From Escherichia coli (GTDB taxonomy: Bacteria; Pseudomonadota; Gammaproteobacteria; Enterobacterales; Enterobacteriaceae): 64,000 nucleotides of DNA. The position numbers and the translations under genes were made by a program. The stretch lies in assembly GCF_024298765.1 (NCBI RefSeq), contig NZ_CP101210.1; one strand, 5' to 3'. This document shows positions 41,879 to 55,500 of this stretch, in pieces; within the stretch, counting starts at the first letter, position 1, and every line of letters begins with the position of its first letter. The notes beneath the pieces were generated by a model that did no database searches, had not been told where the DNA came from, and saw only the letters and a list, made by a program, of their open reading frames with translations.

Positions 41879-44160
<2,282 letters not shown>

Positions 44161-44387: not shown

Positions 44388-45281
<894 letters not shown>

Positions 45282-45659: not shown

Positions 45660-47213
45660 TTATTTGATATCCTTCACGCGCATACCGTTGAGCTGTTCAT
45701 CCGTAATGGTGTTGCCCGCTTTGAAGTAATCAACCACCGCGTGATAAACGTAATAACCGCCCGTTGTGTTACGCGCTTTCCCTTCGGTAAAGGCGGTAAA
45801 ACCATCTCCACCATCAGCAAGGAAACTCTGAGTAGCAATGTGATAAACCGTCGCATCTTCAATGGGTTTGCCATTCAGAGCCAGTGTGATTACCCGCTGA
45901 CCAACCGGCTTGCTGCTGTCGTACTTCATTTCCAGGCCTTTCGATACCTGTAAAACGCCATTGCTTAAACTTGCGCCGTGTTCCATCAGACTGCGTAATT
46001 GTTTACCCGTGAGTTCCATCGTCACCAGTTCGTTGGGGAACGGGAACGTACTGATGACGCCGCCCATCGTGATCGCCCCTGCGGGGATCTCATTGCGAAT
46101 GCCGCCAGAGTTGGTTAACGCCAATTGGGTGTTTTTACCCGCCGCTACCAGTAAAGCGTCAGCCGCCAGGTTCCCGAGGGAAGCCGATTCACCATAGGCA
46201 CGTTTTAATTCAACCGGCGATTGCGCCACCGTTTGTTGCACCACTTCATCAAGCTTTTTATTCCAGCCGTCGATCACCTGTTTCGTTTGTGGATCGGGCT
46301 TCCACTCGTCAGCGTAAATGGTTTTAAGCTCGAAGTTTTTCACCGTAAAATTATGCGGCTTCTCTTTGTAGTCGAGAACCAGTTTGCCCACATCAATCCC
46401 GCCGCTGTCAGTGGAGAGGATGAGCGTATTGCCGACTTTAATCGGTTCCGGCGTACCCACATGTGCATGTCCGGTGATCAAAATATCCAGCCCTTTCACC
46501 TGACTTGCCGTCTGAATATCTTTATCCAGCGCGCGACGCACATCTGTGCCTCCCATACTGGACTGGCGGGCCGGAACACCTTCATGGATCAGGGCGACGG
46601 TCAAATCAACCTTGCCTTTAAGTTCATCGATATAACGTTGTAGCCATTTAATTTCATCACGCGCCTCAATACCCACTCGCGTGGCAGCAGATACTGTGTC
46701 ATTAAAGGCAAATACACCGTGCAAACCTATAACGCCTATTTTCACACCGTCTTTTTCGATGATGGTATAGGGCTTATCCCAGAATGATTTACTGCTGTTC
46801 TGATAAAAAACATTGCCCTGCACAATCGGGAATTTTGCCTGACTCAACTGTAATAATGTGTTGTCCCAGCCGTGGTCAAATTCATGGTTGCCTATCGTGA
46901 CGGCATCAAACGGCATAGTATTCATAATATCGATAATAGCCTTACCTTTGGTCAGGCTGCTGATATATGGCCCGGTAAAATAGTCGCCCGCATCAAAAAA
47001 CCATGTCGCTTTATTTTTTGCTTTTTCTTGCTTAACCAGCGTAGTGATATTTGCCCAGCCGCCAATATCCCGTTTACCGTCAGCGATCCACGGCACTTTA
47101 TAAGGTTCTACATGCGCATGGAGGTCGTTGGTATAAATAATAGTGACATCTTTAGCGCAAGCCCAGAACGGCAGTGTTAATGCGATACCCGCAGCAAGTA
47201 TTTTAATTTTCAT
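45660..47213 (-). CDS. secreted metallophosphoesterase / 5'-nucleotidase-family protein, paralogue A
   Basis: ORF 45660..47219; the track start is a TTG codon. The ATG at 47213 (RBS aaggga, 6-nt spacer) gives [34 protein letters not shown]..., 517 aa. It has a signal peptide and the motifs NDLH, GDYFTG, GNHEFD, HEG and GHAH, plus a 5'-nucleotidase C-terminal-type domain (NSGGIR, STFPFPN). Confidence 0.88.
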
Positions 47214-47272
47214 AAACAATCCCTTTCAGTGAGATAAAGGATTGCTACATTACGTTCTGAAAGACTTATTTA

Positions 47273-47288
47273 TGTGAGAGTAATCACA
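47273..47288. promoter_or_regulatory. perfect CRP-consensus palindrome TGTGA-N6-TCACA
   Basis: tgtgagagtaatcaca read directly. It is centred in the 132-bp divergent region between paralogue A and the Zn-ribbon ORF. A TAATGT hexamer on the minus strand (47247..47252) would put the site near -41.5 for paralogue A. Confidence 0.6.
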
Positions 47289-47345
47289 TCTGCAGGGGAT
47301 AGTTGCCGGACAAAATCAACGACCTTGTGAAATCGTTGGTGATAT

Positions 47346-48470
47346 ATGTCGACTCTGTTTACGATTAATGCCTGTAAAACGTTCGGTTGCCGAAATTTGG
47401 GATTGGCCTCATCGGAAGATTACAGTTGGCCAGACTATAAACTGGGTTATCCGGCACTGCACTGTCGGGCATGTGGCAGTTACCCGCCGTTGTTTGACGA
47501 GCAACAATTTCGTGACTGGTTGTCAGTTCACTTATCTACGTGGGCCTCGGAGAAGGGTCATTTCTGCCCGGTATGTTATGGCACAGACATGATTTGTTAT
47601 GGTCACAATCCACAGGGTTCGCAACGCATTCAATGCCGTAACTGCAAAAAAGTCTGGACGCCTAAACAGTATCAGAAAGAAATTACGCATCCCCAGGCCA
47701 TTGAAACCGTTCAACTGTTCATACCCTTTCAAGGGGCCAGCGCAGTACAAAAACTGTATGTTTTAGTCAGTCTTGACGCCACTCGTGGCAACATTCTTCA
47801 TCTCTCCACGAATTATACGCAACATCAGACAGGAGACAGTCTGCGGTACAGTTACAAGGGCAACACAGAACCAACTATGCACCATCGCGATATCGTGCAG
47901 AAGGTAGATATGCGTGAAGCGCAATTCTTGCGCCGGAGCCAGTTCGATGAAATTCAGTATGGCAGTGCTGTACTCAAGCGCAACGGTAAGGGAGCCATAC
48001 TACGCCCGGTTATCACGGCACACGGGCATTTCAGAATACTGAAAATCCGCTATCCAGATGTCAAAACGCATATTATTTCACACGAATGTTTTCTAAGAGG
48101 CGCAATTATTACAGCCTGGGCAGATCAGTTCCGCCAACAACAAGGTGAACTTTGGTTCGTAGAAGAAGAAATCAGTGACAGTAACGCTGATACGCCCTGG
48201 CATTTTAAGGGAACGACATACCATGGTTGGTGGCAAAATCAGTGGCAGCGCTGGGAGCAGGGGAATAACTGCAAGATGGTCTGCCTACTCACGGGAGCCA
48301 GCTTAGAAAGGGGCGCAAATGTTTCTCTGGCAACCAGTCGTTGTTTTATCACATGGCTGACAGACCAACACGACTTTACCCAAAGCGCGTTATTATCCGC
48401 AGGTCGCGTAACGCAAATGCTGACCTCACTGGCGTTAAAATACAATGAATCGCTCACTCCATCTTGTTAG
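47346..48470 (+). CDS. hypothetical protein with two N-terminal zinc ribbons (second one IS1 InsA-like)
   Basis: 374-aa ORF with an ATG start. Cys pairs are C10/C15 + C40/C43 and C74/C77 + C97/C100 (CPVCYGTDMICYGHNPQGSQRIQCRNCKKVW). The C-terminal roughly 270 aa has no motif I can place, apart from a W/Q-rich patch HGWWQNQWQRWEQ. Confidence 0.7.
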   Translation: MSTLFTINACKTFGCRNLGLASSEDYSWPDYKLGYPALHCRACGSYPPLFDEQQFRDWLSVHLSTWASEKGHFCPVCYGTDMICYGHNPQGSQRIQCRNCKKVWTPKQYQKEITHPQAIETVQLFIPFQGASAVQKLYVLVSLDATRGNILHLSTNYTQHQTGDSLRYSYKGNTEPTMHHRDIVQKVDMREAQFLRRSQFDEIQYGSAVLKRNGKGAILRPVITAHGHFRILKIRYPDVKTHIISHECFLRGAIITAWADQFRQQQGELWFVEEEISDSNADTPWHFKGTTYHGWWQNQWQRWEQGNNCKMVCLLTGASLERGANVSLATSRCFITWLTDQHDFTQSALLSAGRVTQMLTSLALKYNESLTPSC

Positions 48471-48542
48471 TCAATACACTCGACAAACGACCATAAATTA
48501 AGAGAGATCACTACCTTTCATTTAATTAAATATATAAATGTA

Positions 48543-48567
48543 TGACCGTGAAATATAATCATGGTCA
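48543..48567. promoter_or_regulatory. inverted repeat TGACCGTGA-N7-TCATGGTCA (candidate operator)
   Basis: Read directly. The arms are 9 bp with one mismatch. It lies in the 229-bp A+T-rich region upstream of paralogue B. Confidence 0.35.
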
Positions 48568-48589
48568 ATGTTTAATTAATAACATTATT

Positions 48590-48605
48590 TGTTACTAAGA
48601 TCACA
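48590..48605. promoter_or_regulatory. CRP-like site TGTTA-N6-TCACA
   Basis: tgttactaagatcaca has one mismatch to the TGTGA-N6-TCACA core. It lies about 100 bp upstream of the paralogue B start. Confidence 0.4.
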
Positions 48606-48702
48606 TAATACTTTTCTGAACTATGCTTACATAAAATAAGACACGATGTGCCTTTTATTTAAATAATTCAACAAATGTAACACACCCTATCCAGGAGGGA
48701 TG

Positions 48703-50253
48703 ATGAAAACTGTATTTACAACATTATCAGTCATATTCGGCGTGATATTTTCTCACAGTGTTCTAGCTCAGGACGTTACTATTTATTATACGAATGACAT
48801 TCACGCACATGTCAATCCGGCAAAAATCCTCGCTGTTGATAAGAACAGACTTATAGGTGGTATGGCTAATATTGCAGGCATCGTTAATGAAGCGAAGAAA
48901 AAAAGCAAAGATGTGTTTTTCTTTGATGCAGGCGACTATTTTACCGGGCCGTATATCAGCACCCTGACCAAAGGTGAAGCTATTATTGATATCATGAACA
49001 CTATGCCCTTTGATGCGGTGTCTGTTGGTAATCACGAGTTCGATCACGGTGTGCCCAATATGGTGTCTCAGTTATCAAAAGCAAAATTTCCCATTCTGCT
49101 GGGAAATATCTACTACACCGATACGAATAAACCAGTTTGGGATCATCCGTGGACCATTATCGAAAAAGATGGTTTAAAGATTGGTGTGATTGGATTGCAT
49201 GGCGCATTCGCTTTCTATGATACAGTCGCGGCAAAAGCACGTGAAGGCGTAGAAGCCAGAGACGAAATTAAATATTTAAATAAAGCACTTGCAGAATTAA
49301 AAGGCAAAGTCGACATTACCGTTTTGCTAATTCACGAAGGTGTCCCGGCGCGTCAATCAAGCTTTGGTAGTAAAGATGTGGAGCGGCTACTACAGGCAGA
49401 TATTGAGACAGCTAAAAAAGTGAATGGTGTTGATGTCTTAATTACCGGTCACGCACATGTCGGAACACCGCAACCAATAAAAGTTAATAACACATTAATT
49501 GTATCTACCGATGCATACGGCACCAACATCGGAAAACTTGTGCTTGATTACAATCCGAAAACGAAGAAAATTGATAGTTATAATGGTGAGTTAATCACCA
49601 TCTTTGCAGATCAATTTAAACCTGACACCATCGTTCAAAATACTATTGATAAATGGAGTGCAAAGCTTAACAAAATAACACAGGAAGTTGTCGGCCATTC
49701 TCCCGTAGTTTTAACACGTGAGTATGGTAGTTCCTCTTCTACCGGCAACCTTATTCTTGATGCAATGATGGAAAAAACACCTGATGCCGTTGCCGGATTT
49801 CAAAATAGCGGTGGGATTCGAGCTGATTTTCCTAAAGGCGATATCACACTGGGAGATGTTATTAGCACATTCCCCTTTAATAATGACCTCATCGAGATGG
49901 ATTTGACGGGCCGCGATCTCAAATCATTGATGACGCATGCAACCAATCTAACTAACGGTGTGTTACAAGTTTCTAAAAGTGTTGCGGTTGTCTATGACAG
50001 CAAAAAACCCCTCAACCAACGGTTAATCTCTTTCACCATTAACGGCAAACCTGTGGAAGATAATCAAACATATCGTATTGCCACGCACTCCTTTTGTGCC
50101 AGTGGTGGTGACGGTTTTGAAGCATTTTTGAATGGAAAAAATGTGAAGACGATACCGGGAACAACCTCGGCGGAATCTATCATCGATTATTTCAAAAATC
50201 ATAAACCTGTCACCCCAGACTTAACTAAACGAGTCATGGACGTCGCCAAATAA
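48703..50253 (+). CDS. secreted metallophosphoesterase / 5'-nucleotidase-family protein, paralogue B
   Basis: ORF 48700..50253. RBS aggagg at 48693..48698 favours the second ATG (48703). Protein starts MKTVFTTLSVIFGVIFSHSVLAQDVTIYYTNDIHAH... It has a signal peptide, the same metallophosphoesterase motif series, and NSGGIR / STFPFNN in the C-terminal domain. Confidence 0.88.
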   Translation: MKTVFTTLSVIFGVIFSHSVLAQDVTIYYTNDIHAHVNPAKILAVDKNRLIGGMANIAGIVNEAKKKSKDVFFFDAGDYFTGPYISTLTKGEAIIDIMNTMPFDAVSVGNHEFDHGVPNMVSQLSKAKFPILLGNIYYTDTNKPVWDHPWTIIEKDGLKIGVIGLHGAFAFYDTVAAKAREGVEARDEIKYLNKALAELKGKVDITVLLIHEGVPARQSSFGSKDVERLLQADIETAKKVNGVDVLITGHAHVGTPQPIKVNNTLIVSTDAYGTNIGKLVLDYNPKTKKIDSYNGELITIFADQFKPDTIVQNTIDKWSAKLNKITQEVVGHSPVVLTREYGSSSSTGNLILDAMMEKTPDAVAGFQNSGGIRADFPKGDITLGDVISTFPFNNDLIEMDLTGRDLKSLMTHATNLTNGVLQVSKSVAVVYDSKKPLNQRLISFTINGKPVEDNQTYRIATHSFCASGGDGFEAFLNGKNVKTIPGTTSAESIIDYFKNHKPVTPDLTKRVMDVAK

Positions 50254-50293
50254 AATCTCATTTATCAGTCAATTTATTTAACAAGGAATGCGA

Positions 50294-51913
50294 ATGAAAA
50301 CAGCGCAGCGTACTTTATTTGCCGCAACATTGCTGACTATTTTTTCGACCTCAGTTATGGCGCAGGATGTCACGATTATTTATACCAATGATCTTCACGC
50401 CCATGTGGATTCCTATAAAGTACCATATGTCGCAGACGGAAAACGCGACATTGGTGGCTTTGCCAATATATCTACGTTAGTAAAACAAGAGAAAGCCAAA
50501 AATAAAGCCACTTTTTATTTTGATGCTGGAGACTATTTCACCGGGCCATATATCAGTAGCCTGACAAAGGGCGAAGCAATAATTGATATTATGAATACCA
50601 TGCCTTTTGACGCAGTATCAATCGGTAATCATGAGTTTGACCATGGCTGGGATAATGCCCTCCGACAATTAAGCAAAGCGAATTTCCCTGTTTTATTAGG
50701 CAATGTTTATCATAAAGAGAGTGAGAAACCCTTCTGGAACAAGCCCTACACCATCCTGGAAAAAGATGGCATCAGGATTGGTATTGTTGGGCTACACGGC
50801 GTATTTGCATTTAATGACACGGTCTCGGAGCTCTCTCTCCAGGGACTCGATAATGACAATAATAACCGATTTGATAAATCTTCCGCGACCCTCAAGAATC
50901 AGGGGATTGAAGCACGTGATGAAGTAAAGTATTTGCAGCATTATATCGACGAGTTACGTGATAAGGTTGACCTCACCGTGGCGCTGGTTCATGAAGGCGT
51001 ACCGGCGCGTCAGTCCAGCATTGGCAATACAGATGTTAGACGTGCGCTGGATAAAGATATTCAAACCGCAAGCAAGGTGAAAGGATTGGATATTCTGATT
51101 ACCGGGCATGCCCACGTCGGAACGCCAGAACCAATCAAAGTCGGCAACACCTTAATCCTTTCGACTGACAGTGGCGGTATCGATATTGGTAAATTAATCC
51201 TTGATGTCAACCCTACAGCTCGTACTCATAAAGTGAAGAGCTTTGAGCTGAAAACGGTTTATGCCGATGAATGGATACCCGATCCAACCACACAAAAAGT
51301 TATCAATGGCTGGAATAAAAAACTGGCGGATCTTGTACGCCAACCAGTCGGTGAATCATCGATTGCATTAACTCGTGCCTACGGTGAGTCATCGCAACTT
51401 GGCAACCTGTTTACCGATGCAATGCTTGTCGCTGCACCGACTGCACAAATTGCGTTGATAAACTCCGGCAGTTTACGTGCTGATATAAATGCAGGCACGA
51501 TTACCTTTGGTGACATTACCAGTACATTCCCCTTCAAGAATGAACTTACTGAAATGGATCTCAGCGGTAAGGATCTGCGTAACCTACTGGAACACGGGGC
51601 ATCGCTTACCAATGGCATCCTGCAAATGTCAAAAGGCGCAGAAATGCGCTATACCCTGCAGAAACCAGTAGGTCAGCGCATTGTATCTTTTAAAATTAAT
51701 GGTGAAGAGATCGTTGATACGAATATTTACCATGTTGCGACTACGACTTTCCTTGCACTTGGGGGCGATGGTTTTCTGGCATTCAAAGAAGGGAAAAATG
51801 TCCAGGTCCGCGCCGGAAATAACATGTCCAATGTCGTAATCGATTATTTTAAGAAAGGCCACAAGATTACTCCTGCACAGGTAAATGAAATGCGGGTAGA
51901 AGTAAGCAAATAA
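50294..51913 (+). CDS. secreted metallophosphoesterase / 5'-nucleotidase-family protein, paralogue C (with 20-aa net insertion)
   Basis: ORF 50288..51913. RBS aagga at 50283..50287 favours the ATG at 50294. Protein starts [37 protein letters not shown]... It has the same motif series and is closest to paralogue A. Confidence 0.88.
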   Translation: MKTAQRTLFAATLLTIFSTSVMAQDVTIIYTNDLHAHVDSYKVPYVADGKRDIGGFANISTLVKQEKAKNKATFYFDAGDYFTGPYISSLTKGEAIIDIMNTMPFDAVSIGNHEFDHGWDNALRQLSKANFPVLLGNVYHKESEKPFWNKPYTILEKDGIRIGIVGLHGVFAFNDTVSELSLQGLDNDNNNRFDKSSATLKNQGIEARDEVKYLQHYIDELRDKVDLTVALVHEGVPARQSSIGNTDVRRALDKDIQTASKVKGLDILITGHAHVGTPEPIKVGNTLILSTDSGGIDIGKLILDVNPTARTHKVKSFELKTVYADEWIPDPTTQKVINGWNKKLADLVRQPVGESSIALTRAYGESSQLGNLFTDAMLVAAPTAQIALINSGSLRADINAGTITFGDITSTFPFKNELTEMDLSGKDLRNLLEHGASLTNGILQMSKGAEMRYTLQKPVGQRIVSFKINGEEIVDTNIYHVATTTFLALGGDGFLAFKEGKNVQVRAGNNMSNVVIDYFKKGHKITPAQVNEMRVEVSK

Positions 51914-51989
51914 CAAAAACTTATAATACCATTCATTCACTGGATGACATTATTTCTCTCTAAATCAACAATATATAAGAGATATATTT

Positions 51990-52850
51990 ATGTATATAAA
52001 AAAGCACTGGATAGCTTTATCCATTCTATTAATACCTTGCATTGGAAACGCTCAGGAAATTAAAATTGATGAAAGCTGGTTACATCAAAGCTTGAATGTC
52101 ATTGGTCGCACAGACTCTCGCTTTGGCCCAAGACTGACTAACGACCTCTACCCTGAATATACTGTAGCAGGAAGAAAAGACTGGTTTGATTTTTATGGTT
52201 ATGTTGATCTACCAAAATTCTTTGGCGTCGGCAGTCACTATGATGTTGGGATCTGGGATGAGGGCTCACCACTATTTACGGAAATAGAACCTCGGTTTTC
52301 CATTGACAAATTGACCGGATTAAATCTTGCGTTCGGCCCATTTAAAGAATGGTTCATTGCAAACAACTATGTCTATGATATGGGTGACAACCAGTCATCC
52401 CGGCAAAGTACATGGTATATGGGGCTTGGTACAGATATCGACACGGGTCTACCAATTAAGCTTTCTGCCAATATATACGCCAAGTATCAGTGGCAAAACT
52501 ATGGTGCCGCTAATGAAAATGAATGGGACGGATATCGATTCAAAATAAAATATAGCATCCCTCTTACAAATTTATTCGGAGGGCGATTGGTATACAATAG
52601 TTTTACTAACTTTGATTTTGGCTCCGATCTTGCGGACAAGTCACACAATAATAAACGAACCAGTAATGCTATTGCTTCAAGCCATATCCTTTCCCTTCTA
52701 TATGAACACTGGAAATTTGCATTTACACTACGTTATTTTCACAACGGTGGACAATGGAATGCGGGAGAGAAGGTTAACTTCGGAGATGGTCCATTTGAAT
52801 TGAAAAATACAGGATGGGGAACCTATACTACTATTGGTTATCAATTTTAA
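51990..52850 (+). CDS. Tsx-family nucleoside-specific outer-membrane channel paralogue
   Basis: 286-aa ORF with a signal peptide ([23 protein letters not shown]). Long blocks are shared with E. coli Tsx as I recall it ([84 protein letters not shown]). It has a C-terminal aromatic residue ...IGYQF. Confidence 0.9.
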
Positions 52851-53027
52851 ATTAGGTGACATTTTAGATATTGTTACTTAATGTCATTTTGTAATTGTCA
52901 TTAATAACTTCACCATTCACTCTGTTACTTCATCGCTCAACACAAAAGCCCCCTTATTACCGGGGGCACTGACCAAAGGCAAAATGACAATCAATCACCA
53001 CTTCCCCAGGAAGAGGTTTAGGGGTGA

Positions 53028-53058
53028 CAACAAAAGCTGGCAACTGCCAGCTTTTGTT
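53028..53058. terminator. metL terminator (bidirectional-looking hairpin)
   Basis: aacaaaagctggca-a-ctgccagcttttgtt has A/T runs on both sides and lies 10 nt after the metL stop. Confidence 0.75.
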
Positions 53059-53067
53059 CAATAATCA

Positions 53068-55500
53068 CTACAACAACTGCGCCAGCCGGTTAATATCCGA
53101 CTGAATCGCCCCGGCGGTGACGTCGCGCCCTGCACCTGGCCCGCGGATCACCAGCGGGTTGTCGCGATACCAGCGGCTTTCGATGGCAAAGACGTTATCG
53201 CATGGCAGTAGTGATGCCAGCGGATGGTCTTCACGCACCGCTTCCACGCCCACACGCGCTTTGCCATTGGCATCGAAACGCGCCACGTAGCGCAGCACCA
53301 GCCCCATTTCGCGGGCCGCTTCCAGTCGTTGCACCATCTGCTCGTTAAGTTCATCGCCATTTTCAAAGAAATGGTCGATGCTGCCGCCTTCGCAATGGGC
53401 AGGTACCAGTGATTCAACACGTACCTGGTCCGGTTCAATGTTGTAACCCGCTTCACGCGCCAGAATCACCAGCTTGCGCATCACGTCTTTGCCGGAAAGG
53501 TCATCACGCGGGTCAGGCTCGGTTAAGCCCTGCTGCCACGCCTGATCCACCAGTTCGGTAAACGGCACGCTACCGTCGAATTGCAGGAACAGCCAGGAGA
53601 GCGTGCCAGAGAAGATCCCACTGATCGACAAAATGGTATCGCCGCTGTCGATCAGATCGCGCACGGTATGGTTGATCGGCAAACCCGCACCGACAGTGGC
53701 ATTGTACAGCCAGTGACGCCCGGTTTTTTCGAAGGCGTCGTGGATCTGGCGATATTTATTGCTGTCGCTGGCTCCTGCCAGTTTGTTGGCACTGATGACG
53801 TGGAAACCGTGGCTGGCGAAATCAAGATACTGGTCAGCGAGCTGCTGGCTGGCGGTAACGTCCAGCACCACTAAATCATCATACGGGTGGGCGCGCATCC
53901 ACAGGAACAGCGACTCTTCATCCTGCTCGACCGCTTCATCGTTGAAGAAGGCTAACGCGCGGCTGGCGTCCAGCCCGTCATAGCTCAACAGGCTGCGGCG
54001 GCTGTCCACCACGCCTGCCAGCACAAATTCAAAGCCGGTACGCGCCGAAAGCGTGCTCTGCTCACGGGCGAACAGTTCCAGCCAGCGGGAACCGATATTG
54101 CCCTTGCCGAACAATACCAGGCCGATGCGTTTTTCTGCGCGGAAGACGGACTGATGCAGCCCCTGAATCAGGCTTTCGGTCGGGCCGGTGCGCAGTACTG
54201 CCACCAGGCTGATGCCGTCATCGGACTGCCAGGTAAATTCGACCGGCTGGCCTTTCAGTTGCTGCCAGAAGCGGTGGCAATGCAGCGGGTTACGGGTGAC
54301 GCCTGCCCCAACCATCGCCACCAGCGCCAGCCCCTGACGCAGGCGCAGTTCGCCAGGTAATCCCGCTTCGTCGAGGATTTTCAGCGCACTGTCGGCCACT
54401 TCTGAGGTGTAGCAAAATTGCAGCAACTGGCGATCGTTATGCACGCCAACCGCCAGTGGGCGCACCTGAGCACGTTTCAGGATCTGGTCGATCTCTTTAT
54501 GCGTCAGTTTGAAATCCTGGCTGGCGGGCACCTGAAACTCAATCAAGCAGACATCATCATGGCTGGTGACAATACGCGCACCAGTACCGGAGGCCAGCAC
54601 GCGTTCAATGCGCGTGGAACCTTGATCCGGCGTGTAGCTACAGCGCAGTTGCAGGTCGATTTCGCTGCCAGAAACGGGCTGTAAAGTACGGGCATGAAGA
54701 ACGGGAGCCGCCAGACGCGCCAGTTCGCTGGCTTCATCCAGACGCAGCAACGGCAGCAGGCAGGCATCTTTCACTTTACGCGGGTCGGCGCTATATACCC
54801 CGGCGACGTCGCTCCAGATGGTTACGCGAGAAACACCCGCCAGCGCACCGATTTGTGTCGCGGAATAGTCGGAACCGTTACGCCCCAGCAGCACCGTTTC
54901 ACCGGCGTTGTTACAGCTGATAAACCCGGTCACCACCAGACGTTTGCCCGGATGTTGTACCAGTAGCTGTTGCAGCAACGGGTAAGAAAGTCCTTCATCA
55001 ACCTGCGGTTGCGCAGCGCGTTCAGCGCGTAAAAACTCGCGGGCATCAAGCCAGGCCGCTGGCAGCCCTTGTTGATTAAGCACCGCAGACATCAGGCGCG
55101 CCGACCACACTTCACCGTGGCCCACCACTTCCGCATACACCGCGTCGTTAATACCGCTGTCGAGCAACGCCGCCAGGCGCTCAAGATCGCTGACAAAAGC
55201 GCTAATGAGGCTATCGGCTTCTTCGGCGGGTAACAGGCCGCTAATCAGATCGCACTGATAGCGACGCAGCGTTTGTTGAACCTGATGCGCAGAGAGACGA
55301 TCGGTCTGGCTTAGTTTCAACCAGTTAATCAACTGGTTAGTGGTGCTACCGGCGGCGGAAACCACCATCATATCGTCAGGCTGAGAGTACTCCGCCATAA
55401 TGCCCGCGACACGCAAATAACACTTCACATCAGCCAGACTACTGCCACCAAATTTATGCAGTTGACGACCTTTCGCCCCTGCCTGCGCAATCACACTCAT
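53068..55500 (-). CDS. metL: bifunctional aspartokinase II / homoserine dehydrogenase II
   Basis: 810-aa ORF starting MSVIAQAGAKGRQLHKFGGSSLADVKCYLRVAGIMAEY... Confidence 0.97.
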   Translation of the reverse strand: MSVIAQAGAKGRQLHKFGGSSLADVKCYLRVAGIMAEYSQPDDMMVVSAAGSTTNQLINWLKLSQTDRLSAHQVQQTLRRYQCDLISGLLPAEEADSLISAFVSDLERLAALLDSGINDAVYAEVVGHGEVWSARLMSAVLNQQGLPAAWLDAREFLRAERAAQPQVDEGLSYPLLQQLLVQHPGKRLVVTGFISCNNAGETVLLGRNGSDYSATQIGALAGVSRVTIWSDVAGVYSADPRKVKDACLLPLLRLDEASELARLAAPVLHARTLQPVSGSEIDLQLRCSYTPDQGSTRIERVLASGTGARIVTSHDDVCLIEFQVPASQDFKLTHKEIDQILKRAQVRPLAVGVHNDRQLLQFCYTSEVADSALKILDEAGLPGELRLRQGLALVAMVGAGVTRNPLHCHRFWQQLKGQPVEFTWQSDDGISLVAVLRTGPTESLIQGLHQSVFRAEKRIGLVLFGKGNIGSRWLELFAREQSTLSARTGFEFVLAGVVDSRRSLLSYDGLDASRALAFFNDEAVEQDEESLFLWMRAHPYDDLVVLDVTASQQLADQYLDFASHGFHVISANKLAGASDSNKYRQIHDAFEKTGRHWLYNATVGAGLPINHTVRDLIDSGDTILSISGIFSGTLSWLFLQFDGSVPFTELVDQAWQQGLTEPDPRDDLSGKDVMRKLVILAREAGYNIEPDQVRVESLVPAHCEGGSIDHFFENGDELNEQMVQRLEAAREMGLVLRYVARFDANGKARVGVEAVREDHPLASLLPCDNVFAIESRWYRDNPLVIRGPGAGRDVTAGAIQSDINRLAQLL

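Follow-up and report, generated by a model that had tools for sequence, protein, structure and literature searches.

Ancient, selectively constrained nucleotidase-family paralogues with predicted signal peptides in the metF-metL interval of Escherichia coli

Introduction

Three genes for putatively secreted nucleotidase-family proteins, here called A, B and C, lie in the interval between metF and metL in a 64-kb stretch of Escherichia coli DNA (the window, meaning the whole of the DNA that was analysed). Their similarity raises the question of whether they are recent copies of one another or old paralogues, and whether selection has kept them as distinct enzymes or as redundant ones. The original prediction, made from the DNA alone, held that they are old duplicates under strong purifying selection, maintained for distinct substrates or conditions and not in decay.

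The cluster is real but ordinary and largely already described. It has been annotated and published as GR31, and a crystal structure of A already exists. GR31 (metL..metF) of APEC BEN2908 was reported to contain three UshA-domain ORFs of 1554, 1551 and 1620 bp together with an 861-bp Tsx homologue (PMC12928451, 2026). Metal and active sites were described as intact, and a function in nucleoside processing and transport was proposed (PMC12928451). GR31 is the same island as the one analysed here; BEN2908 matches the window at 99.5%. The passages of the GR31 account considered here do not treat paralogue age, selection, a two-step origin, signal peptides, the CRP site or the conserved neighbouring gene hyp (PMC12928451).

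Results

Composition of the cluster

The genes and their main features were located as follows.

45660..47213, minus strand: paralogue A, 517 aa (ORF 45660-47219), with Pfam domains PF00149 and PF02872; putative periplasmic dimetal 5'-nucleotidase-family enzyme.
47213-47154, minus strand: signal peptide of A, predicted cleavage ACA-KD.
47346..48470, plus strand: hyp, 374 aa, cytoplasmic; two Cys4 zinc ribbons precede an RNase H-like core of DDE transposase/integrase type.
48703..50253, plus strand: paralogue B, 516 aa (ORF opens at 48700), predicted cleavage VLA-QD.
50294..51913, plus strand: paralogue C, 539 aa (ORF opens at 50288), predicted cleavage VMA-QD.
50837-50896, plus strand: 20-aa insertion specific to the C clade.
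51990..52850, plus strand: gene for a nucleoside-specific Tsx-like outer-membrane channel, 286 aa; a second Tsx-type gene.

The likely true starts are 47213 (A), 48703 (B) and 50294 (C), judging from Shine-Dalgarno spacing and from how RefSeq annotates identical loci. The Tsx-like protein scored 492.8 bits with NCBIfam NF011686 (versus 311) and 234.9 bits with Pfam PF03502 (versus 27.2; E = 1.5e-69).

Divergence and age of the paralogues

The original prediction had compared one 43-codon block of A and C codon by codon.

46392..46520, minus strand: 43-codon block of A, compared with the block of C.
51056..51184, plus strand: 43-codon block of C, compared with the block of A.

Its count was exact. 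Nineteen codons are identical, 23 differ synonymously and one differs non-synonymously, a Q/K exchange being the only peptide change, and the nucleotide identity of the two blocks is 80.6%. The estimate that A and C are about 70% identical, with B more distant, was also accurate: full-length amino acid identities are 68.0% for A/C, 56.7% for A/B and 55.5% for B/C, and the full-length nucleotide identity of A and C is 66.7%. When whole genes were considered, 55-63% of the conserved degenerate codons used a different codon between paralogues, and the longest exact aligned run was 20 nt. Synonymous divergence therefore spans the whole gene and is not special to the 43-codon block.

Synonymous sites were saturated for all three pairs (Nei-Gojobori dS undefined; ML dS 12-25), with dN values of 0.22-0.39, and YN00 also failed on these pairs. 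A pairwise dN/dS analysis of A, B and C had been proposed together with the prediction. The saturated dS confirms the age of the paralogues; ω itself could not be estimated directly for the same reason, and comparisons of orthologues and alleles were used in its place. In a neighbour-joining tree of 88 homologues, the paralogues separated into three deep clades, all of which include orthologues from several genera. Vibrio proteins branched outside A+C, and the B clade branched outside those. The saturation and the separate orthologue clade of each paralogue in other genera uphold the reading of A, B and C as old duplicates and not recent copies; as judged from their sequences, they are ancient out-paralogues of one 5'-nucleotidase/calcineurin-like metallophosphoesterase subfamily.

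Selective constraint

Strong purifying selection was found for each paralogue, as had been claimed, with ω between 0.03 and 0.13 on unsaturated comparisons. The values for A (0.026-0.085) were the same as those of the flanking genes metF and metL (0.02-0.06). Within E. coli, ω was 0.09-0.13 for B, a value that rests on 43 substitutions (32 synonymous and 11 non-synonymous; P = 1.5e-11 versus neutrality), and 0.084-0.105 for C, which gave 0.04-0.08 between genera. The Tsx-like gene had an ω of 0.11. The ORFs and catalytic residues of A, B and C are intact, which agrees with the earlier rejection of decay. Each paralogue is kept by purifying selection.

Enzyme family, active site and substrate specificity

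All three proteins scored above the Pfam gathering thresholds for PF00149 (Metallophos; 43-49 bits versus 21.5) and PF02872 (5_nucleotid_C; 127-135 bits versus 23.6). The metal-binding motifs DxH, GD, GNH, H and GHxH, which had been described as fully kept, are indeed intact in A, B and C. Equivalents of UshA residues D41, H43, D84, N116, H117, D120, H217, H252, R410, F429 and F498 were present in each paralogue, and these positions were also conserved in six more distant relatives. Each of the three keeps its dimetal ligands and catalytic His-Asp dyad, as well as the Arg that binds phosphate and the Phe pair that stacks on the base. The region of UshA R375/R379 aligns ambiguously with the paralogues; Arg338 is invariant.

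With the UshA equivalog model NCBIfam NF007109, A, B and C reached 151.9, 168.6 and 156.8 bits, under the cut-off of 600. Scores with the models for CpdB (84-102 bits), NadN (121-133), SoxB (143-157) and PRK09419 (183-196) were likewise all under the NCBIfam cut-offs, which are 486, 436, 550 and 1646 or more bits for CpdB, NadN, SoxB and YfkN-type enzymes, respectively. The PDB entries 3IVD/3IVE, named 'Nucleotidase', were about 99% identical to A over residues 19-517 (1119 bits). 3IVD/3IVE is a structural-genomics entry that corresponds to CFT073 c4898 and was reportedly solved in complex with uridine and cytidine; these nucleoside complexes are the only hint of nucleotide substrates. A literature search found no functional paper for 3IVD/3IVE, c4898 or the neighbouring c48xx/c49xx tags, and nothing on the biochemistry or expression of B or C; the published paper on the distribution of ushA-like genes does not treat the genes for A, B and C.

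When the three clades were compared, 60 alignment columns were fixed within each clade yet different between clades, and 195 columns were conserved in all clades. The clade-fixed columns include 371, 375 and 377 by Arg373, 393 by Phe392, and 463 and 465 flanking Phe464, and the C clade keeps a conserved 20-residue insertion. Distinct substrates for A, B and C, as originally suggested, would be consistent with this pattern but are unproven.

The alternative that survives best, although we regard it as unlikely, is that the paralogues are redundant isozymes that hydrolyse the same nucleotides, with selection acting on total activity (dosage or robustness). That A, B and C have identical residues in the catalytic core and the nucleoside clamp, and that many columns are shared by all clades, fits this idea. 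So does the absence of B and C from most E. coli and of A from two thirds, which means that none of the three is essential. However, clusters in Enterobacter, Citrobacter and Escherichia hold A-, B- and C-type genes together even though these have diverged to saturation, and such long-term co-retention is unusual for pure redundancy. The clade-fixed differences, moreover, are partly concentrated beside substrate-contacting residues, and the insertion of C is conserved and clade-specific.

History of the locus

The gene order metL-hyp-A-metF was found in Salmonella, Klebsiella, Citrobacter, Kluyvera, Kosakonia, Phytobacter and Pseudocitrobacter. Because the same position is held in many enterobacterial genera, A and hyp are ancestral to the metL-metF interval; the between-genus dS of A is comparable to that of the flanking genes. 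In E. coli the locus is polymorphic, with three states: empty; A + hyp; and A + hyp + B + C + Tsx-like gene. The full form occurs in 658 of 5,426 complete E. coli genomes (12%), and A in 1,843 of the 5,426. The full and short forms differ by one insertion.

48434..53068, unstranded: B-C-tsx insertion of 4,635 bp, which the short form (A + hyp only) lacks.

When aligned to the ST131 short form, the sequence is interrupted at 48433/53069. The insertion carries B, C and the Tsx-like gene and has a GC content of 40.6%, compared with 52.3% for the rest of the window, and a breakpoint in identity lies inside hyp. The nearest relatives found outside E. coli were 72-75% (B), 85-87% (C) and 57-60% (Tsx-like) identical. 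A duplication in this genome was ruled out: A is the ancestral resident, and B and C arrived with the Tsx-like porin in the 4.6-kb low-GC insertion. The first reading of the locus thus stands for age, constraint and the absence of decay, is corrected on the origin of the copies, and falls for a lipobox in A (see below).

In the history that best fits these data, A and hyp are vertically inherited occupants of the metL-metF interval in Enterobacteriaceae, and A has been lost from roughly two thirds of E. coli genomes. B, C and the Tsx-like channel gene were inserted later as one 4.6-kb block at the junction between the 3' ends of hyp and metL, and the same event swapped most of hyp for a divergent allele.

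The divergently transcribed gene hyp

hyp is the divergently transcribed partner of A and is conserved across genera. Sequence searches of Pfam, PDB and NCBIfam, transposase models included, gave no match above threshold. An AF2 model built with 18 close homologues had an unusable pLDDT of 38, and one built with 11 Vibrionaceae relatives added reached 85.6. A Foldseek search of the model against the PDB gave no significant match; the protein was scored as having an RNase H-like core of the DDE transposase type.

We considered that the cluster could be the cargo of a mobile element driven by hyp as an IS1-related transposase, hyp having no role in nucleotide metabolism. This reading draws on the IS1-type zinc ribbons and DDE-transposase-like fold of hyp, on the finding that Enterobacter, Citrobacter and some E. 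coli have hyp-linked nucleotidase clusters at more than one place in the chromosome, and on the label 'transposase' that relatives bear in some databases. It is nevertheless very improbable. The hyp-A pair occupies the same metL-metF position in many genera with a dS like that of its flanks, and hyp is present in one copy per genome in fixed synteny. The unit is without terminal inverted repeats, a search around it having returned only the A/C paralogy and short chance matches. No conserved acidic residue is evident where the first two members of a DDE triad usually lie, in predicted beta1 and after beta4; D201 and E247 are the only invariant acidic residues, alongside the invariant H226, H228 and H246. 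Since hyp adjoins nucleotidase genes across two bacterial families, it is possible that it is a domesticated transposase with a host function.

Putative regulatory elements

Four candidate elements were found around A, hyp and B, none of them assigned to a strand.

47273..47288: CRP-type site TGTGAGAGTAATCACA, perfect consensus, between A and hyp.
47317..47338: inverted repeat CAACGA-N10-TCGTTG overlapping the 5' leader of hyp; possibly an operator or an RNA hairpin.
48590..48605: CRP-type site TGTTACTAAGATCACA, near-consensus with 1 mismatch, upstream of B.
48638-48667: promoter-like site downstream of TGTTACTAAGATCACA and upstream of B.

TGTGAGAGTAATCACA is the only match without mismatches to TGTGA-N6-TCACA in the 64-kb window. 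Its centre lies 67.5 nt from the ATG of A and 65.5 nt from that of hyp, a spacing that would fit a predicted class II CRP arrangement. Across genera, a comparison of the matching intergenic region at about 48 orthologous loci showed the CRP half-sites to be conserved and the spacer to be variable. At up to 2 mismatches the pattern was not enriched in the window (20 matches versus 26.7 expected), so that only the perfect, conserved site carries weight. TGTTACTAAGATCACA is a candidate CRP site with weaker evidence than the site between A and hyp. The inverted repeat was flagged as a hairpin; from genus to genus its arms are conserved and its loop varies. An Rfam scan of the island gave no match at E ≤ 0.1. 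A generic promoter/terminator scan, whose counts were no higher than in shuffled sequence, was used for positions only. No plus-strand terminator-like site was found between B and the Tsx-like gene, and the latter is probably co-transcribed with B and C.

This arrangement suggests a mechanism in which, upon catabolite derepression, CRP would activate A and probably also the B-C-tsx unit. The three paralogues would hydrolyse the phosphoester bonds of different nucleotide substrates in the periplasm, and the Tsx-like channel and inner-membrane nucleoside transporters would move the nucleoside moieties, the outcome being a nucleotide/nucleoside scavenging module. Tsx channels pass nucleosides and not nucleotides, so it is not obvious why one would be paired with nucleotidases in the periplasm. 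The data show the age of the paralogues, their constraint, their intact catalytic machinery, the kind of export signal, how the locus arose and the conservation of the CRP site; we only infer what the enzymes cleave, that CRP controls them, that B, C and tsx are co-transcribed, and any part played by hyp.

A wider proposal can be put forward tentatively, although it is rather unlikely: a domesticated IS1-like hyp would regulate or partner the nucleotidases through the 47317-47338 repeat and CRP, from Vibrionaceae to Enterobacteriaceae, with separate specificities for A, B and C. If this were true, for example with pyrimidine 5'-nucleotides versus other nucleotide or dinucleotide substrates, the cluster would provide an accessory nucleotide-harvesting pathway for ExPEC-type strains.

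Export signals

Signal peptides had been predicted for all three proteins, and rule-based calls confirmed this from n-region charge, hydrophobic core and small residues at -3/-1. The n-regions carry 1-2 Lys/Arg, and the maximum 10-residue Kyte-Doolittle hydropathy is 2.4-2.5. The cleavage sites ACA-KD (A), VLA-QD (B) and VMA-QD (C) share one alignment column and obey the -3/-1 rule. A, B and C are thus predicted to be exported to the periplasm via a cleavable Sec/signal peptidase I signal peptide. The mature proteins would begin at Lys21 (A, with the N-terminus KDVTII), Gln23 (B) and Gln24 (C, numbered from the 50294 start).

For A, the original prediction had given the cleavage as WAC-AKD and had offered both a signal peptidase I site of the AxA type and a lipobox. 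The AxA reading holds; the position does not, the rule-compliant site lying one residue on, at ACA-KD after residue 20. By its sequence context, Cys19 is the variable -2 residue of this Ala-x-Ala site. That A is instead an outer- or inner-membrane lipoprotein, acylated at Cys19 and located apart from B and C, has very little probability. The Cys near the end of the signal peptide (LPFWAC) and the PDB construct of A, which begins at Ala20 directly after that Cys, are compatible with it. However, A fails PROSITE PS51257, the G+LPP-type pattern and the DOLOP pattern [LVI][ASTVI][GAS]C, Phe at -3 and Trp at -2 not being accepted. Among 48 A-clade orthologues, 33 have Cys at position 19, 14 have Ser and one has Gly (Ser/Gly in 15/48); the Ala that follows never varies, and the residue before it is A, V or S. 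The ACA-KD site of A is, in addition, in exact register with VLA-QD and VMA-QD. The different localisation proposed for A was therefore not borne out.

Discussion

The weakest alternative, that A, B and C are recent tandem duplicates or copies homogenised by gene conversion and owe their similarity to recent ancestry within E. coli, has next to no probability and is, for whole genes, effectively refuted: a sliding-window scan did find a 30-codon window (A codons ~70-100) in which the nucleotides of A and B are 90% identical, including ~45 nt with two differences, but in that segment B resembles A (84%) no more than it resembles its own orthologues (84-85%), which is what a nearly invariant peptide would give, GC3 is unequal among A, B and C (0.52, 0.38 and 0.43), and the codon differences and short exact runs reported above hold across whole genes.

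Taken as a whole, ancient, constrained and exported paralogues, a two-step origin of the locus and a proposed CRP-linked scavenging mechanism form the best explanation, which we consider likely. Multi-copy periplasmic hydrolases are ordinarily ancient paralogues under purifying selection, and this finding itself adds little. The contribution made here is a clearer history of an E. coli locus that is polymorphic, the rejection of the lipoprotein idea and a testable prediction of CRP control. The more interesting lead is hyp, a transposase-fold zinc-ribbon protein beside nucleotidase genes in two bacterial families.

Compared with IS1-family and other DDE transposases and retroviral integrases, hyp is without terminal repeats or an evident canonical DDE triad, and unlike IS1-family transposases it sits in fixed chromosomal synteny. 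As to the enzymes, 3IVD/3IVE is essentially the same protein as A, with a construct that begins at Ala20, so that a solved structure exists for A; B and C are without one. After 3IVD, the closest solved relatives are the Thermus thermophilus 5'-nucleotidase 2Z1A (E = 5e-46) and CD73 and snake-venom 5'-nucleotidases (1e-31 to 1e-35), whose matches span both domains and outscore UshA, NadN, YfkN and CpdB. 2Z1A and the CD73-type enzymes are distant from the paralogues, and CD73 is a GPI-anchored eukaryotic dimer. UshA is only 24-27% identical to A, B and C, and its Gln254 is replaced in them by His, as in CD73-type enzymes. It is likewise periplasmic, as predicted for the paralogues, and shares with them the two-domain architecture, the dimetal ligands, the His-Asp dyad, the Arg and the Phe-Phe base clamp.

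Gene content of the metF-metL interval

The 7.8-kb gap between metF and metL contains five genes: three nucleotidase paralogues (A, B, and C), delimited by ORF and domain searches; an unannotated 374-codon ORF diverging from A (hyp); and a Tsx-type porin gene, recognized by its ORF and family models.

41879-44098, minus strand: katG, left of metF
44388-45278, minus strand: metF, left flank of the nucleotidase interval
45660-47213, minus strand: nucleotidase A
47273-47288: CRP-type site TGTGAGAGTAATCACA, a perfect TGTGA-N6-TCACA in the 132-nt A-hyp intergenic region
47317-47338: inverted repeat CAACGA-N10-TCGTTG over the hyp leader, just 5' of the ATG
47346-48470, plus strand: hyp
48703-50253, plus strand: nucleotidase B
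50294-51913, plus strand: nucleotidase C
51990-52850, plus strand: Tsx-type porin gene
53068-55500, minus strand: metL, right flank of the nucleotidase interval

Identical loci in RefSeq carry three 'bifunctional metallophosphatase/5'-nucleotidase' genes, a 'hypothetical' or 'cytoplasmic' protein, and Tsx. The Tsx-type gene is a second, diverged nucleoside channel gene that travels together with B and C.

Paralogue divergence and purifying selection

The original prediction regarded A, B, and C as old paralogues under purifying selection, which proved right and is now quantified by identity, dS, and ω. Full-length protein identity was 68.0% for A/C, 56.7% for A/B, and 55.5% for B/C, matching the earlier estimate of roughly 70% for A and C with B more distant, and the 43-codon block compared between A and C (129 nt each) again gave 23 synonymous differences, 1 replacement, and 19 identical codons. 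Among the three pairs, 58-68% of codon third positions differ and dS is saturated (Nei-Gojobori undefined; ML dS >10, dN 0.22-0.39). A different codon is used at 55-63% of the conserved degenerate codons, and no exact aligned run longer than 20 nt was found between A, B, and C; the block is thus representative, and nothing points to recent homogenisation. A single A/B window of 30 codons is 90% identical, and there B showed 84-85% identity to its own orthologues and 84% to A; an almost invariant peptide accounts for this identity. A run of about 45 nt (A, 46947-46991; B, 48928-48972) contains only two differences within a nearly invariant 15-residue peptide and could be a micro gene-conversion tract, indistinguishable from constraint.

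Since saturated pairs bound ω from above only, closer pairs were used, including a second full-island haplotype (the 96% allele group, about 96.3% identical, roughly 100 genomes).

Table. ω in orthologue and allele comparisons.
A versus Escherichia, Pseudocitrobacter, Salmonella, Enterobacter, and Klebsiella orthologues: 0.03-0.085 (dS 0.05-1.7)
metF and metL, same genome pairs as A: 0.008-0.057
A versus 96% allele group: 0.03-0.04
B versus 96% allele group: 0.09-0.13 (32 synonymous, 11 non-synonymous)
C versus 96% allele group: 0.08-0.10 (51 synonymous, 15 non-synonymous)
Tsx-like gene versus 96% allele group: 0.11
C versus other-genus orthologues: 0.04-0.08
Foreign B- and C-type genes, most pairs: 0.05-0.14
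C-type pair, E. coli SCPM-O-B-8794 versus E. albertii: about 0.3 (29 synonymous, 27 non-synonymous)

Every per-gene comparison with the 96% allele group was far from neutrality, and no internal stops were present among the A, B, and C copies inspected. Values of 0.03-0.13 for A, B, and C across orthologue and allele pairs, not near 1, bear out strong purifying selection.

Origin and distribution of the locus

The island and its flanking genes were mapped onto 65 loci from a homologue scan using one genome per species. The order metL-hyp-A-metF recurs in Salmonella enterica arizonae, Klebsiella, Citrobacter, Kluyvera, Kosakonia, Phytobacter, Pseudocitrobacter, and other Escherichia species, and A has a dS similar in magnitude to those of metF and metL; hyp and A are therefore ancestral content of the interval. 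A survey of 5,426 complete E. coli genomes found A in 1,843 (34%) and the full form, in which B, C, and the porin accompany A, in 658 (12%), while the remainder (about 66%), such as K-12 and O157:H7, have neither.

Alignment of the window with the ST131 short form (A and hyp only) extends to 48433 and resumes at 53069, which places a 4,635-bp insertion in the full form exactly at the junction of the hyp and metL 3' ends. At 40.6% GC, the insertion is richer in AT than the remainder of the window (52.3% GC). The window matches the short form at 95-100% identity across metF, A, and the A-hyp spacer; inside hyp, from about 47400, identity drops to 89%, then 71%, then 41%, indicating that most of hyp was exchanged in the insertion event as well. 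The 3' ends of hyp and metL overlap in the short form, whereas the insertion carries, just 3' of the metL stop, a perfect 14-bp hairpin that on the minus strand is followed by a T-rich stretch (53029-53058); it is probably the metL terminator of full-form strains.

The tree resolved A, B, and C into three deep clades, with Vibrio proteins outside A+C and B outside those. Other genera carry hyp-A'-B'-tsx'-C' clusters at other sites, with a gene order differing from that of the window and identities of 72% (B), 85-87% (C), and 57-60% (porin), the nearest relatives of the B-C-tsx block found outside E. coli. The three nucleotidases did not duplicate in this genome: they are out-paralogues brought together through vertical descent and one horizontal insertion.

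E. coli SCPM-O-B-8794 (loci L050 and L005; compare E. albertii locus L051) has a second-site hyp-A'-B''-B'-tsx'-C' cluster with four nucleotidase genes, which, with the metL-metF copy, makes five subfamily paralogues in that one genome. IS insertions were also seen: IS1A between A and hyp in CT30 (L070), ISVsa5 between C and a shortened Tsx-like gene in APEC E12049 (L069), and IS1A inside A in CS18F (H66).

Signal peptides

A lipobox had been proposed as one reading of the A signal peptide, but PROSITE PS51257, the G+LPP-type pattern, and the DOLOP lipobox all fail. At the Cys19 position, 48 A-clade orthologues have Cys (33), Ser (14), or Gly (1), always followed by Ala and preceded by A, V, or S, and G, N, S, or F occurs there in related C-type proteins. 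Lipidation would require the Cys to be invariant; the position instead behaves as a -2 residue free to vary. The alternative WAC-AKD cut is one residue too early: ACA|KD is the sole suitably placed site obeying the -3/-1 rule and aligns with VLA|QD (B) and VMA|QD (C). The prediction for A is thus the same as for B and C, a soluble protein of the periplasm.

Many C-clade orthologues elsewhere (for example, at loci L008, L046, L050, and L051) have an A-like signal peptide, such as MKIK..LPLWACAKD, whereas that of C in the window (50294-50362; ..TIFSTSVMA|QD) resembles the 'C-like' clade, which suggests that paralogues have swapped their 5' ends in the past.

Putative regulatory sites

Apart from the site at 47273-47288, the 64-kb window has no perfect TGTGA-N6-TCACA (about 0.06 expected by chance, by our calculation); across genera, the half-sites of this site are conserved and its spacer is variable. 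Its centre lies 67.5 nt from the A ATG and 65.5 nt from the hyp ATG, midway between the divergent starts. For A, this arrangement would suit a CRP promoter of class II, in which the conserved AACGTAA would serve as the -10 region and GAAAGG would be the ribosome-binding site. One of two single-mismatch CRP-like sites in the window (48590-48605) lies 5' of B and is followed by a sigma-70-like promoter site (48638-48667) in a 28% GC spacer. The AT-rich B-C and C-tsx spacers are short (34 and 76 nt, from ORF starts) and have no plus-strand terminator-like site, suggesting that B-C-tsx may form one transcript. Nucleoside catabolic genes are typically catabolite-controlled, and putative promoters of this kind for both units (A; B-C-tsx) are plausible.

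The gene divergent from A

Pfam, NCBIfam, and PDB sequence searches gave no match above threshold for hyp. Its relatives (29-40% identity) are divergent neighbours of nucleotidase genes in Vibrio and in a C-like enterobacterial clade. Two Cys4 zinc ribbons (C10/C15/C40/C43 and C74/C77/C97/C100, invariant or nearly so) precede a transposase-like (RNase H-like) core; D201, H226, H228, H246, and E247 are invariant, no conserved acidic residue occupies the usual first two DDE positions, and no terminal inverted repeats were found flanking the hyp-nucleotidase unit. With ω mostly 0.14-0.35 at unsaturated dS, compared with 0.03-0.13 for its neighbours, hyp evolves faster. A hypervariable stretch at about 47538-47688, which spans the second zinc ribbon and the linker, has 73% identity in a comparison of two full-island alleles, against 91-100% elsewhere in hyp. 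The repeat at 47317-47338, with arms conserved and loop variable across genera, could be either an operator in the DNA or a hairpin in the RNA. On the simplest reading, hyp would derive from a transposase that has been domesticated, possibly as a regulator.

Comparison with known nucleotidases

Alignment with K-12 UshA and six distant relatives showed that A, B, and C keep the metal motifs, as originally stated (equivalents of UshA D41, H43, D84, N116, H217, and H252). The catalytic dyad (H117, D120), the phosphate-binding R410, and the base clamp F429/F498 (UshA numbering) are also present, whereas UshA Q254 is replaced by His in all three; these residue roles are reportedly those described from the UshA structures of Knöfel and Sträter.

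All three clades share 195 conserved columns, and 60 columns are fixed within but differ between clades (B odd in 31, A in 15, C in 9, all different in 5), including positions beside substrate contacts: 371, 375, and 377 (Arg373), 393 (Phe392), and 463 and 465 (Phe464). A 20-residue Asn/Asp-rich insertion in C (50837-50896) occurs in 12/12 C-clade sequences and nowhere else. This is the pattern expected of diverged specificity, although not proof of it.

None of the three reached the curated cut-off of the NCBIfam equivalogs for UshA, CpdB, NadN, SoxB, or YfkN-type enzymes. The nearest solved structures after A's own are Thermus 5'-nucleotidase (2Z1A), CD73, and snake-venom enzymes, with UshA, YfkN, and CpdB farther away; together, the cut-offs and this ranking indicate that A, B, and C form their own subfamily. 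A shares ~99% identity with PDB 3IVD/3IVE, whose deposited name is 'Nucleotidase'. We take both to be structural-genomics entries for CFT073 c4898, with uridine and cytidine as ligands. PMC12928451 describes the whole metL..metF interval as GR31 of APEC strain BEN2908, with three UshA-domain ORFs whose metal and active sites are intact and a Tsx homologue, for which it reports 67% identity to Salmonella Tsx; it proposes a role in processing and transporting nucleosides. The nucleotidase cluster is ordinary, and both the literature and the PDB already cover it; hyp is the only lead with some novelty.
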